NCBI GenBank assembly: GCA_964486995.1
Contig: CAZAOV010000019.1
Coordinates: 1 to 21,538, forward strand
Length of the DNA: 21,538 bases
Source of the DNA: an uncultured Gammaproteobacteria bacterium
GTDB taxonomy: Bacteria; Patescibacteriota; Patescibacteriia; SG8-24
Direction of reading: 5' to 3'
The position numbers and the translations under genes are program-made. Numbering within the stretch: position 1 is the stretch's first letter; each line of letters opens with the position of its first letter. The notes below the pieces were generated by a model. It was not told where the DNA came from. It was given only the letters and a program-made list of their open reading frames with translations, and did no database searches. Positions 13,966-16,220 of the stretch are shown piece by piece.

Positions 13966-13985
13966 CCCGTCACTTCGTGGGCAAC
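13966..13985 (+). repeat. 20-bp exact direct repeat, copy 1 (CCCGTCACTTCGTGGGCAAC)
   Basis: Identical 20-mers occur at 13966-13985 and 16201-16220 in the same orientation. They bracket the methyltransferase, rSAM and precursor genes. The core contains CACnnnGTG. Confidence 0.8.
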
Positions 13986-14208
13986 AGGCGGTCAACGCTT
14001 TGGTGTTGCGGCTGGGGGAGTGATGGGTGAATGGCGTGTCGCGCCGCCAGTACCAGCCGATAATATGGACATCTGGCGAATTATATGCTAAGGTCGTACA
14101 ACAAATTTATACGCGAAACCTATCGAAAGTCAGAATCAACAACCGAATCCAGCCCAGAAGTGGGACTCTCTATATTCTAAGGGGGCGGCCTACAAGCCGT
14201 TCAATTTT

Positions 14209-14730
14209 TTGTTGCTCAAGAAGGTTCTGAAACGAGTCGAGGAATTGGCGGGGGCGGAACCAGGGTCTGCGCTCGACCTGGGGTGCGGCACCGGCGAGAC
14301 ACTCGCCAAACTGAAAAGTGTTGGCATCGAAGACGTGGCCGGCATCGACTGCTCGGAGGTGGCACTCGACGAGGCCAGAAAACAGCTTCCGGACGAAAGC
14401 TTGCACTGCTGTGATCTCAACGATGCGGTATTTCCTGCTGAACGGCAGTTCGATCTGATAATCTGCAAGCTGACTGTGGCGTTCGTTGCGGACAAGGAGT
14501 CGTTTCTCAATAAGGTCTCTGCCCTCATGCACGAGAAGTCCGTGCTCTGCATCATTACACCCGTGTTGCACGAGTCGCTCGAATACACAAAGGAAGACAA
14601 GCCTGGTATCGCGGTGAAGTACCCGGAGTTCAAGGCTTTGCTGGAAAGCAGATTCGGGAACGTCGAGGAGTTGCATCACGACTATACTGGCGAACGGGGT
14701 GACCTCGTGACATTCCTCGCCATTAAATAG
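14209..14730 (+). CDS. Class I SAM-dependent methyltransferase
   Basis: Motif I ALDLGCGTGE. A downstream acidic motif (IDCSEVALDEA) and the hydrophobic post-I strands follow the MTase fold. The N-terminus is unusually short, with motif I only about 20 aa from a TTG start and no close SD. It is convergent with the rSAM gene and they share a terminator. Confidence 0.6.
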   Translation: MLLKKVLKRVEELAGAEPGSALDLGCGTGETLAKLKSVGIEDVAGIDCSEVALDEARKQLPDESLHCCDLNDAVFPAERQFDLIICKLTVAFVADKESFLNKVSALMHEKSVLCIITPVLHESLEYTKEDKPGIAVKYPEFKALLESRFGNVEELHHDYTGERGDLVTFLAIK

Positions 14731-14740
14731 CGAAACAAAA

Positions 14741-14770
14741 AAAGACGGCTCGCAAAGGGGTCGTCTTTTG
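14741..14770. terminator. Bidirectional terminator between convergent methyltransferase and rSAM genes
   Basis: AAAGACG-gctcgcaaagggg-tCGTCTTTT. Confidence 0.55.
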
Positions 14771-14775
14771 GTTTG

Positions 14776-15813
14776 TCATTTCCAGCACTGCGGGTCTGCC
14801 GCCTCCCACCTGCCGTTGGTCGAGTGCGTCACCGCCATGCAGCCCCGGCAATAGTTTAGAAGTTCGCAGTCGCGGCACTTCTCCAGCCGGTCGAAATCGC
14901 GGTAGCGGTCGAGTTTCTCTCCGAAAAAGATGTCGTAGAGGCTCTGCTCGGGCACCTTGCCGACCGGACTCTTGAAGCGTCGGCAAGCGTAGGCGGTGCC
15001 GTCTGCAAGGAGTGTCATGTGTGCGTTGGCTGCGCCGCAGCCGCTCACGACCACTCCGCCGGTGTCCTCCGGCGCGAAAAGTCCGCGCTCGTAGAGAAAC
15101 AGGGTCCAGAGATGGTCCTTGAGGACGAACTCGGTTGTCGCATTCTCGTGCTTGGCGTAACAGCCCCAGACCGTACCGAGAAAATCGCGGTACTCCTCGG
15201 GTGTGAAGCTGGAGCTCGCGTCGCCATCGCCCGGGCAGTGCCGCGCGAAACCGAACACTCGCGCGCCCATGCCGACCACATGATCGATGAGCTTGGGAAT
15301 GTCTGCCGCGTTTTCCTTCGAGACGGTGGACATAATGCCTACGCCCACGCCGTTGCGCTGCAGCGTGTCGCATGCCTCGCCGGTCGCACGGAACGAGCCG
15401 CGCTTCCTGAAGCGGTCATGCGTCTTCTCCATGCCGTCCAGCGACAGCTGGAATTTTCGCACACCGAGCTCGTAGAGTCGTTGCGCCACTTCGTCGGTGA
15501 TGCCGAACGGATTTCCGAGCAGGCTTACCGGCACATCGTTCTTGCGCAGATGCGCGAGCATGTCCCAGAATCTGGGATGCAGAAGCGGATTGCCACCGGT
15601 GAGCGATACGCGCGGAATCGCGCCTAGGCGCTTGCAGGTTTGAACATAGTCGTTGGCGATCGCGGTGAGGGTGCCGTAGCCCATGCGTCGCTCGCCCTCG
15701 ATTTCCCGCTTCGCGTCCGGCGACGTGTACAGGTAGCAGTGTCGGCACCGCTGCTCACAGCTGGTCGTCAGGTGCCACTGAAGGGACAAGACTGGTTTGT
15801 TGCTTTCGTTCAT
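14776..15813 (-). CDS. Radical SAM enzyme with a C-terminal SPASM/twitch-type auxiliary cluster domain (peptide-modifying maturase)
   Basis: Canonical CxxxCxxC (TTSCEQRCRHC) near the N-terminus. GGNPLL is a glycine-rich SAM-binding motif. The C-terminal Cys-rich block CGAANAHMTLLADGTAYACRRF...CRDCELLNYCRGC is typical of SPASM domains. ATG at 15813..15811. Confidence 0.85.
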   Translation of the reverse strand: MNESNKPVLSLQWHLTTSCEQRCRHCYLYTSPDAKREIEGERRMGYGTLTAIANDYVQTCKRLGAIPRVSLTGGNPLLHPRFWDMLAHLRKNDVPVSLLGNPFGITDEVAQRLYELGVRKFQLSLDGMEKTHDRFRKRGSFRATGEACDTLQRNGVGVGIMSTVSKENAADIPKLIDHVVGMGARVFGFARHCPGDGDASSSFTPEEYRDFLGTVWGCYAKHENATTEFVLKDHLWTLFLYERGLFAPEDTGGVVVSGCGAANAHMTLLADGTAYACRRFKSPVGKVPEQSLYDIFFGEKLDRYRDFDRLEKCRDCELLNYCRGCMAVTHSTNGRWEAADPQCWK

Positions 15814-15818
15814 CGTCT

Positions 15819-15839
15819 GCCTCTCTGAAAAAAAGAGGC
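15819..15839 (-). promoter_or_regulatory. Intercistronic stem-loop between the precursor and maturase genes
   Basis: GCCTCT-(9-nt loop)-AGAGGC ending 5 nt before the rSAM ATG. Its 3' arm overlaps the GAGG of the putative SD. There is no trailing U-run, so it is more likely an attenuator or processing site than a terminator. Confidence 0.4.
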
Positions 15840-15886
15840 GGAGCCAAGTGCGCTACGCCTCAATAAGATGCATGGCATGCAGTGCC

Positions 15887-16069
15887 TTAGTCCCAGTTGG
15901 AACACCCCGTGCAGGAGCAGGGGTCGTTGTTGCAGTCGCTGGACTCAAAGCCTTCTCCGGACTTCATTTCTCGCGCCTGCTTCGCCGTCCGGGGCGCGGC
16001 CCTTCCGACCTGTTCCTCGCGTTTCCGCCAACGGTTGAACCGCTCGCGCATCGCGTTCTTTTCCTTCAT
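15887..16069 (-). CDS. Putative RiPP precursor peptide (60 aa) with a Cys-rich C-terminal core
   Basis: AGGAGACGGAG ATG. The translation is MKEKNAMRERFNRWRKREEQVGRAAPRTAKQAREMKSGEGFESSDCNNDPCSCTGCSNWD, a basic helical leader followed by an acidic, Cys-rich core with four Cys in the last 15 residues. It lies immediately upstream of and co-directional with the rSAM/SPASM gene. The 97-aa ORF in the track is trimmed to the SD-supported ATG. Confidence 0.6.
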   Translation of the reverse strand: MKEKNAMRERFNRWRKREEQVGRAAPRTAKQAREMKSGEGFESSDCNNDPCSCTGCSNWD

Positions 16070-16200
16070 CTCCGTCTCCTTTCTGTTCGCGGTTGAAGGA
16101 ACAAAGTGAAGATGCAACACGTCATATTTACAGCAGGTTGTCAAGGCTGTCGGTACTAAAAACGTTGTGCACGCTGCCATTGATTAACCTGTTTCCGCAT

Positions 16201-16220
16201 CCCGTCACTTCGTGGGCAAC
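16201..16220 (+). repeat. 20-bp exact direct repeat, copy 2 (CCCGTCACTTCGTGGGCAAC)
   Basis: Identical to 13966-13985. It lies about 130 bp upstream of the precursor gene on the minus strand and about 100 bp from the 3' end of tRNA-Val. Confidence 0.8.

Follow-up and report, generated by a model that had tools for sequence, protein, structure and literature searches.

The ACGX system, in which a radical S-adenosylmethionine (SAM)/SPASM enzyme (TIGR04340) is paired with a short Cys-rich precursor peptide (TIGR04341), has been defined bioinformatically. From an experimental perspective, the closest relative of the enzyme considered here is SbtM (TIGR04082), a radical SAM/SPASM enzyme that acts on Cys in a short ribosomal peptide. 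The substrates of SbtM (Lewis et al. 2021, as cited in PMC11002830 and PMC11626156) lose four hydrogens and nuclear magnetic resonance identifies the product as a thiooxazole (PMC11002830), the only one reported for a radical SAM enzyme (PMC11626156). PapB, of the PapB/freyrasin system, is a radical SAM/SPASM enzyme with two auxiliary clusters (NF047865; PMC9413430, PMC12373016) that makes thioethers in Cys-X3-Asp/Glu motifs, tolerating other spacings (PMC9413430), and can join a Cys to the C-terminal residue (PMC12373016). The anaerobic sulfatase-maturating enzyme (anSME; PDB 4K36-4K39) also acts on the C-beta of Cys, without the recognition element (RRE) of RiPPs, the peptides made by ribosomes and modified after translation. 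The locus described here belongs to a stretch of 21,538 nucleotides (contig CAZAOV010000019.1 of assembly GCA_964486995.1, GTDB lineage Patescibacteriota), hereafter the window, and consists of a precursor peptide gene, a radical SAM/SPASM maturase gene and a methyltransferase gene. On balance, we lean towards reading it as a RiPP-type three-gene cassette that forms a Patescibacteria-specific side branch of the ACGX radical SAM/SPASM family, with the maturation pathway and the mobile origin proposed below.

The cassette resembles the ACGX system in the size of the enzyme, in its CX3CX2C motif and seven-Cys SPASM region, in the short Cys-rich peptide gene placed directly 5' of the maturase gene, and in the leader motifs FNxW and (S/T)(A/V)Q, which are common to all precursor types; neither system has an RRE, a protease or an exporter. 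It differs in that its core is a single DCxxDPCxCTGCSxWD unit and not a series of ACGX repeats, in its co-conserved methyltransferase, absent from 52 of 53 canonical loci, in the lack of the HxlR regulator typical of canonical loci, and in its restriction to Patescibacteria. Unlike SbtM, its closest experimentally characterised relative, the window maturase has no N-terminal domain of ~190 residues, and the window precursor has no selenocysteine. With PapB/freyrasin the cassette shares, besides the type of enzyme, a substrate with several Cys each having Asp, Glu or Thr at +3/+4, the C-terminal Asp included; however, the maturase is not a member of the PapB family and lacks an RRE, and the precursor family is unrelated. 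The compact architecture and fold of anSME are matched over the full length (template modelling scores TMq 0.72-0.76 and TMt 0.69-0.72), but at 18% sequence identity, with no sulfatase motif in the window peptide and with a dedicated small precursor gene adjoining the maturase gene.

Gene content and family placement of the cassette

The precursor peptide gene (15887..16069, minus strand) encodes 60 amino acids (MKEKNAMRERFNRWRKREEQVGRAAPRTAKQAREMKSGEGFESSDCNNDPCSCTGCSNWD) and is defined by the open reading frame (ORF), by the NCBI gene call and by homologue alignments A4 and A6. The initial annotation, made from the sequence alone, had pointed to an ORF of this length with a C-terminal core directly 5' of a radical SAM enzyme; the gene is there, and exactly this protein is the one called by NCBI. 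Its start codon is the ATG at 16069, with an AGGAG at 16080-16076. The longest frame (15887-16180, minus strand) would give 97 amino acids from its first ATG, ending in ...SSDCNNDPCSCTGCSNWD; this reading was rejected, its N-terminal 37 residues not being conserved in homologues. The core, DCNNDPCSCTGCSNWD (residues 45-60; 15890..15937, minus strand), was delimited from the invariant columns of alignment A6, where W14, R15, P26, D45, C46, D49, P50, C51, C53, T54 and G55 are identical in all 13 sequences. The leader motifs FNxWR and (S/A)PRT are conserved as well. Nearly the same core is found in the further representatives P0138-P0146, with the exception of P0146 (DCEPCPCTC), which lacks D49. 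Most window-type peptides end in C-S/T-x-W-D, and a minority have an acidic tail (CTGDDGD, CTGEE).

The precursor had no match among the Pfam and NCBIfam models. A profile search of 5.8 billion proteins resolved the window-type peptide family into 13 clusters. An exhaustive HMMER scan of 1.84 billion representatives returned 19 proteins at E<=1e-3 and 14 at E<=1e-10; at the former threshold, 16 are window-type short peptides of 41-89 amino acids and one, P0148, is a transitional CxC-type peptide that links the window-type leader to a CxC-type core. The DC..DPC.CTG core is present in nearly all the family members found, every one of which is annotated as 'hypothetical' or left unnamed. A close copy of the cassette, on the partial contig L090, differs from the window by four synonymous and two non-synonymous codon changes in the precursor gene, where the core is unchanged, and by 24 synonymous and 12 non-synonymous ones in the maturase gene; judged by these counts, the L090 copy carries signatures of purifying selection.

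The maturase gene (14776..15813, minus strand) encodes a radical SAM/SPASM peptide maturase of 345 amino acids, identified from Pfam and NCBIfam matches, invariant Cys and an AlphaFold2 model (pLDDT 89.4). The CxxxCxxC motif and the SPASM-type Cys block described in the initial annotation are both borne out by the Pfam matches (Radical_SAM, 9e-20; SPASM, 9.5e-9): the CX3CX2C motif is formed by C19, C23 and C26 (residues 19-26; 15736-15759) and the seven-Cys SPASM region by C259, C277, C313, C316, C322, C325 and C343 (residues 259-343; 14785-15039), all of them invariant in 22 homologues. Over its full length, the model can be laid on anSMEcpe and on that part of SuiB which holds the catalytic and SPASM domains (TMq 0.72-0.76). 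No RRE domain was found in the 345 residues of the maturase, whose model superposes over its whole length on the RRE-less anSME.

The precursor and maturase genes are separated by a spacer of 73 nucleotides, and the stem-loop anticipated there is present as an 8-bp hairpin (15816..15842, minus strand), recognised from the RNA fold, with its 3' arm over the Shine-Dalgarno sequence of the maturase (AGAGAGGC...ATG). The fold is modest (minimum free energy -27.3 kcal/mol for 87 nucleotides, z = -2.1, equalled by 8 of 200 shuffles), and the hairpin is a possible attenuator that would set the ratio of precursor to enzyme. At the other end, the maturase gene shares with the convergent methyltransferase gene a bidirectional intrinsic terminator (14740..14769, both strands), whose 12-bp stem is flanked by an A-run and, at its opposite side, by a T-run. 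The RNA fold gives it z = -5.0, and none of 200 shuffles folds as well.

Among the NCBIfam models, the best match of the maturase is TIGR04340 (rSAM_ACGX), with 382.5 bits against a curated cutoff of 400; the alignment joins residues 9-345 to model positions 3-339 of 341. TIGR04082 (SbtM) comes second with 206 bits (E 1e-60, residues 6-332), below its cutoff of 350, and all other models stay at or below 106 bits, among them PapB (NF047865), with 72.5 bits where the cutoff is 340, and anSME (TIGR03942), with 62.4 bits where it is 349. Neither the SCIFF nor the QhpD maturase model appears in the best 25 of the 69 matches, and no qhp gene occurs in the window. As controls for TIGR04340, canonical members score 453-482 bits and members of the window's clade 359.8-407.2 bits, the latter straddling the cutoff. 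The maturase has the trait of this family, namely CX3CX2C plus seven-Cys SPASM in a protein of ~340 amino acids, and by its profile scores it is a peripheral, near-threshold member of TIGR04340. On the same grounds, the cassette belongs to none of the SCIFF, PapB, QhpD and anSME systems. The initial annotation had recognised a RiPP-type thioether signature and had suggested a comparison with SPASM-family models: the ribosomal-peptide maturation cassette was upheld, but the enzyme falls outside the families named at that time, at the edge of TIGR04340 and with SbtM as the nearest characterised enzyme.

The precursor model TIGR04341 picks up both controls of the ACGSACGAG type (35.5 and 41.4 bits, against a cutoff of 28), does not match the window precursor even at E<=10, and also misses the Methanobrevibacter 'TACGSD' repeat form and other non-canonical precursor types. 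With a maturase near the threshold of TIGR04340 and a precursor outside TIGR04341, the cassette is therefore placed in a divergent, unmodelled branch of the ACGX family. A scan of 185,579 species genomes yielded at least 584 related loci, distributed among Bacteroidales, Clostridia/Lachnospiraceae, Methanobrevibacter, Methanomassiliicoccales, Micrarchaeota and Patescibacteria. The small ORFs upstream of the enzyme were taken from 87 non-redundant loci, in 74 of which a small Cys-rich ORF lies at most 250 nucleotides 5' of the radical SAM gene. These precursors are of four types: canonical ACGX-repeat peptides (n = 53, e.g. ...ACGSACGAGDEKPEPKPAACGSACGAGEK); 'CxC-dense' cores (n = 14), with a Clostridia form (DCSCNCSSGCSACSSSCGSC...) and a form from the Candidate Phyla Radiation (CPR) and DPANN (SCNCGGGCSGEC...); other Cys-rich cores (n = 3); and the window type, DCxxDPCxCTGCSxWD. 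All four core types have in common Cys flanked by small residues. In a neighbour-joining tree of the 87 homologues, which is distance-based and without support values, the window groups with L001, L002, L006 and L004 inside the CPR/DPANN clade, the sister of the Clostridia CxC clade and of the large canonical clade.

The third gene (14122..14730, plus strand) encodes a class I SAM-dependent methyltransferase, recognised by Pfam (Methyltransf_11/25/31 at 1e-13 to 1e-14) and by alignment A2; the initial annotation had rightly placed a small methyltransferase here, convergent with the maturase and sharing its terminator. The annotated start is the TTG at 14209 (173 amino acids), the first canonical one, and the conserved N-terminal residues KWDSLYSKGAAYKP lie 5' of it. 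The ATC at 14122 aligns with the ATG of the 57%-identical methyltransferase homologue of L001, which would mean a non-canonical start codon or the loss of the original one. The best NCBIfam matches, that is, BioC, the DVU_1556-family methyltransferase and trans-aconitate methyltransferase, are all far below cutoff, and homology therefore does not define the methyl acceptor. With a hidden Markov model built from the window-type methyltransferases, a methyltransferase gene was found adjoining the maturase gene in 5 of 5 window-type loci, in 11 of 14 CxC-dense loci and in 1 of 53 canonical loci. Furthermore, when the ORFs near the family loci were clustered, the methyltransferase cluster comprised 15 loci, all non-canonical. 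The convergent methyltransferases, the window's included, match Pfam Methyltransf_11/23/25; for those that are co-directional, the match to TehB is strong (1e-11 to 1e-22) and that to TPMT weak. From this distribution, the methyltransferase is a genuine partner of the maturase, and a companion only of the non-canonical branches.

The same three genes are found in at least four other Patescibacteria genomes, five with the partial contig L090. The closest homologues of the maturase (75-53% identical) come from Patescibacteria metagenome-assembled genomes (MAGs), and several of them bear the JGI name 'radical SAM/SPASM domain protein of ACGX system'. In the loci fetched from relatives (L001, L002/L003/L007, L004/L005 and L006), an ORF of 54-60 codons with the same architecture ends 56-72 nucleotides 5' of the maturase gene, and the window-type core is present in all five window-type loci, namely the window itself, L001, L002, L004 and L006. 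The possibility raised in the initial annotation that the ORF might not be conserved beside the enzyme in other genomes is thereby removed. The methyltransferase gene lies just 3' of the maturase gene; its orientation is convergent in L001, L002 and L006, and that of L004 is TehB-like and co-directional. The genes around the cassette vary with the genome (FtsW/RF-1/GyrB, DnaB/SIMPL/PPDK, or hypotheticals), and the three genes therefore travel as a unit. Since the order peptide, enzyme and methyltransferase recurs in independent genomes, the cassette is not a chance arrangement; by these comparisons it is a side branch, conserved but rare, of a family predicted to mature peptides. An independent sequencing run yielded a 1728-bp contig (L091; Logan SRR7048221) that is 100% identical to window positions 13067-14794, and the same strain has therefore been sampled twice.

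Proposed chemistry and site of action

In the pathway that we propose, the 60-residue precursor would be recognised through its conserved leader (FNxWR ... PRT) by a compact maturase of anSME size, with one radical SAM cluster and two auxiliary [4Fe-4S] clusters, which would modify the Cys of the C-terminal core DCxxDPCxCTGCSxWD. The most likely product would contain small thioether rings of the PapB/ranthipeptide type, each linking a Cys sulfur to a side-chain carbon. In the core, D49 stands at +3 of C46, T54 at +3 of C51, and D60 at +4 of C56 or, in short variants, D56 at +3 of C53; these are the residues that would be paired in the rings. The methyltransferase would then methylate the product, on a carboxylate or on a remaining thiol, giving what is probably an intracellular redox- or metal-active peptide.

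Thioether rings are our first, if tentative, choice of chemistry, favoured over an SbtM-like thiooxazole because the conservation of the substrate is more direct evidence than the relatedness of the enzyme. Among SPASM enzymes, relatedness is a poor tracker of chemistry. In 24 canonical cores, Asp or Glu occupies the +4 position of 53% of 143 Cys, and the +1 or +2 position of none, against a background of 12% for these two residues; at +2 to +4 of the last Cys, they occur in 22 of 24 canonical cores and in 11 of 12 window-type cores. From the Cys-X2-4-Asp/Glu spacing, a Cys-to-Asp thioether, as put forward in the initial annotation, is plausible. The canonical ACGX-repeat cores (L008-L089) keep a strict Cys-X3-Asp/Glu register, which mirrors the substrates of PapB and does not appear in the name of the family.

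Several points weigh against the thioether and the pathway built on it. The CxC-dense cores of Clostridia are almost without acidic residues despite belonging to the same enzyme family, and an acidic acceptor therefore cannot be a universal requirement; moreover, the Asp or Glu after an ACGAG unit could perhaps be just the first residue of a charged linker. SbtM, which among characterised enzymes is the nearest to the maturase, forms a thiooxazole instead of a thioether, the PapB model scores low, and the SCIFF-type and QhpD models are outside the best 25 of 69 matches. The methyltransferase has no canonical start codon where its homologue predicts one. Finally, no experimental work on any member of the ACGX family was found in the accessible literature, from which most subscription journals were excluded.

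The alternative closest to the characterised enzymes, unlikely in our view yet worth serious attention, is that the maturase behaves as SbtM, abstracting the C-beta hydrogen of Cys and cyclising this residue with the preceding carbonyl to a 5-thiooxazole, with a loss of 4 Da per Cys (-4 Da). The cassette would then be an O2-independent route to a bufferin-like metal-binding peptide, in which the TehB-like or class I methyltransferase would S-methylate the exocyclic sulfur. SbtM (TIGR04082) is by far the closest characterised family of the maturase (206 bits, the next at 106), as it is for all seven relatives tested; nevertheless, the score is far under the SbtM cutoff of 350, the alignment begins at model position 196 of 516, leaving out the N-terminal extension of ~190 residues, and the precursor has no selenocysteine codon. 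The sole feature common to the four core types is Cys flanked by small residues, as a thiooxazole would have it, but this chemistry leaves unexplained the invariant Asp/Thr at +3/+4 of Cys and the family-wide Cys-X3-D/E pattern. The methyltransferases beside the CPR and Clostridia branches match TehB, in the range already given, and weakly TPMT, both of which are chalcogen methylases; the window's own methyltransferase is only marginal to TehB (21.4 bits). The 5-thiooxazole is readily alkylated (PMC12668002), which would fit TehB-like methylases, and thiooxazole peptides bind copper (PMC11626156).

It is very improbable that the peptide works as a full-length small Cys-rich protein, metallothionein-like, redox-buffering or Fe-S-handling, whose leader is never removed and in which the radical SAM enzyme makes a single-site change, be it Cys to formylglycine as in anSME, an epimerisation or another. 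Such a protein would agree with the lack of a leader peptidase or exporter in the window and in its relatives, and with the partners of the canonical loci, i.e., an HxlR-type regulator, a PNPOx-ferredoxin and a zinc-dependent alcohol dehydrogenase/quinone oxidoreductase, which form a stress or redox context and not that of a bacteriocin. The maturase has the size and fold of anSME and is without an RRE, but the anSME model gives 62 bits against a cutoff of 349, the core has no C/S-x-P/A-x-R sulfatase motif, and several Cys are invariant, not one. A conserved leader followed by a hypervariable or repeat core, as found in this family, is typical of RiPP precursors. Hardly credible is the last explanation, in which the small ORF is spurious, the substrate of the radical SAM enzyme is a non-peptide or is encoded elsewhere, and the adjacency of the two genes is coincidental. 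It can draw on the precursor matching no Pfam or NCBIfam model and on the maturase having no RRE; yet the ORF is conserved as a protein across 13-17 independent clusters, in which the core hardly varies, its place is 56-72 nucleotides 5' of the enzyme gene in all the loci examined, its synonymous changes exceed the non-synonymous ones, and the canonical precursors have a curated partner family of their own, TIGR04341. By these conservation data, the coincidence is already effectively refuted.

For the RiPP-type cassette that we prefer, the gene neighbourhood bears on the place where the product acts. The initial annotation had seen no protease or exporter and had suggested an intracellular peptide, and the wider comparison fits this suggestion: no peptidase or transporter is encoded in the window or beside its close relatives, and no export or protease family was among the recurrent partners when the ORFs within 3 kb of ~80 family loci were clustered. 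Besides the methyltransferase, three partners recur: an HxlR-family regulator (Pfam 2.8e-27), transcribed divergently from the precursor-maturase pair in 50 loci (L012-L076 and other canonical ones), a fusion of a PNPOx-like protein with a 2x[4Fe-4S] ferredoxin in 15 loci, and a Zn-dependent dehydrogenase/quinone-oxidoreductase-type protein in 7 loci. Since there is no conserved leader peptidase or exporter, the product probably acts inside the cell, and on this circumstantial evidence we prefer an intracellular redox- or metal-related peptide to a secreted bacteriocin. A role of the locus as a defence system was considered and rejected: PADLOC gave only generic matches to the radical SAM core (pVip, 56 bits) and to the methyltransferase domain (mad2), and the NCBIfam model of viperin, whose cutoff is 180, scored 46.5 bits.

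The flanking repeat and the tRNA-Val gene

The cassette is bracketed by a perfect 20-nucleotide direct repeat, CCCGTCACTTCGTGGGCAAC, at 13966-13985 and 16201-16220, which extends to 30 nucleotides at 87%. This repeat occurs nowhere else in the window, and 0 of 100 shuffles gave such a match. The cassette had been delimited in the initial annotation by positions 13966 and 16220, which are the first nucleotide of the left copy and the last of the right one, with no mention of a repeat. The left copy (13966..13995, plus strand) lies inside a frameshifted relic of the 3' end of a tyrosine integrase gene (~13897-14041), and the right copy (16201..16230, plus strand) is 94 nucleotides from the 3' end of a tRNA-Val(GAC) gene (16324..16400, minus strand), which has its own terminator at 16297-16312 and, beside it, the presumed hotspot of integration. 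The relics were observed by tblastn, which aligned integrase residues 320-345 and 345-370, in different frames, to 13897-14041, and residues 345 onward to 16202 onward.

An intact counterpart is found in a related Patescibacteria MAG (L093, 10231-11709), where a tyrosine integrase gene (Pfam Phage_integrase, 1.8e-29) abuts tRNA-Val and the next gene is excisionase-like (HTH_17, 1e-12). The DNA coding for the C-terminus of this integrase (...SPELRKFGQQAVN...) matches the left repeat at 21 of 22 nucleotides, with a local score of 39 against a shuffle maximum of 25. The repeat thus matches the 3' end of an integrase gene abutting the same tRNA-Val in a relative, and the cassette is therefore probably the cargo of a decayed integrative element. 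The arrangement of a DHH gene followed by tRNA-Val is kept in L094, L095 and L090, and in L093 a histidine-kinase gene stands in between. As a separate observation on L093, the integrase ORF crosses the tRNA gene in antisense and meets no stop codon there.

The maturase gene has a GC content of 0.60-0.62 against ~0.52 in the flanks. In L090 the cassette is 95-96% identical to that of the window, whereas the flanking ends of the DHH gene and of the cadherin gene are only 74-78% identical, and the homology to the cassette ends at 16199/16200, where the right repeat has its inner edge. At 786-958 (corresponding to window positions 13535-13705), L090 carries the last ~45 codons of the cadherin-like gene with its terminator, placed between the cassette and tRNA-Val, and the junction of the cassette therefore differs between two close genomes. 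As for the other relatives, L001 has an integrase fragment 3.6 kb from its cassette, and L004, L014 and L023 have tRNA genes within ~1.3 kb of theirs. No flanking repeats were found in L001, L002, L004 and L006, and the exact 20-mer is present in none of 85 loci; the cassette proper therefore does not include the repeat.

This arrangement resembles the tRNA-targeting integrative elements that carry a tyrosine integrase and an excisionase, in that a direct repeat of 20-30 nucleotides brackets the cargo beside a tRNA gene and matches the integrase-proximal attachment (att) region of the intact L093 element at the same tRNA-Val. It differs from them in having no integrase or excisionase left in the window, only frameshifted relics, in the position of the repeat, ~95 nucleotides downstream of the tRNA and without overlap with its 3' end, and in the short distance between the repeats, only 2.2 kb. 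We consider it probable that the cassette is the cargo of one or two integrase-mediated insertions at an att site adjacent to tRNA-Val, the integrase genes having since decayed; the 20-nucleotide direct repeat would then be what is left, after the decay of the element, of two att/integrase-end relics. This origin has to be set against the weakness of the left integrase relic at the protein level (E ~1) and against the outcome of the search for an empty site, none being recovered from a metagenome scan with the 20-nucleotide repeat or from the relatives L094 and L095. In the latter two, the DHH gene and tRNA-Val are followed by other genes, and the sequences are too divergent for the junction to be reconstructed; the scan returned one unrelated contig sharing only the 20-mer, which is consistent with chance at the size of the collection.

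Other explanations of the repeat and of the cassette's origin were rejected. Rfam found only the tRNA and the repeat is not palindromic, against a regulatory RNA or a palindromic operator, and 2.9 million viral contigs yielded only 4 relatives, against a phage origin. Two further features were noted near the left repeat: a 39-codon ORF on the minus strand (13854-13973), with its GTG start inside the repeat and no Pfam match, and a terminator-like hairpin with a 17-bp stem and a T-run (13750-13788), in the segment of 260 nucleotides between the cadherin gene and the left repeat.

Other genes of the window and biological meaning

Outside the cassette, an ORF of 877 codons (18588-21221, plus strand) matches Pfam MVP_shoulder (4e-17, residues 544-652) and Vault_3 (6e-11, residues 481-539); its product is major-vault-protein-like, in an apparent Patescibacteria contig, and PADLOC gave no match to it. 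Two TrmB-family regulators of 250 amino acids each, possibly paralogues, are encoded 6 kb apart (4668-5420 and 10807-11559, plus strand), and a T4-type RNA ligase gene at 9561-10706 keeps its synteny with the relatives L094 and L095.

The ACGX-type radical SAM/SPASM family is widespread, its loci ranging from Bacteroidales of the gut and Clostridia to methanogens, DPANN and CPR, and the accessible literature yielded no experimental work on it. Within this family, the branch of the window is compact and distinct in sequence, with a single core of 16 residues, an obligatory methyltransferase and no repeats; having a single core and no repeats, it is therefore the simplest substrate for solving the chemistry of the family, whether thioether or thiooxazole. 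The missing export and protease genes, together with the HxlR, ferredoxin and oxidoreductase neighbours of the canonical members, suggest that the role is intracellular and concerns redox or metals. The cassette also adds a peptide-maturation system to the Patescibacteria, which have reduced genomes with generally few pathways of this kind, and its tie to a decayed integrase element offers a concrete route for the patchy distribution of the family. A broader proposal, speculative and in our estimate distinctly unlikely, is that the whole ACGX/CxC family makes intracellular Cys-derived peptides, which would retain their leader or be trimmed by a housekeeping protease, and would serve as radical-SAM-built, O2-independent analogues of metallophores of the bufferin/methanobactin type or as thiol/electrophile buffers, with the three-gene version of the CPR moving as the minimal cargo of tRNA-targeting integrases. 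If true, the cassette would be a horizontally traded module for stress or metal homeostasis, in organisms thought to be nearly without secondary metabolism.

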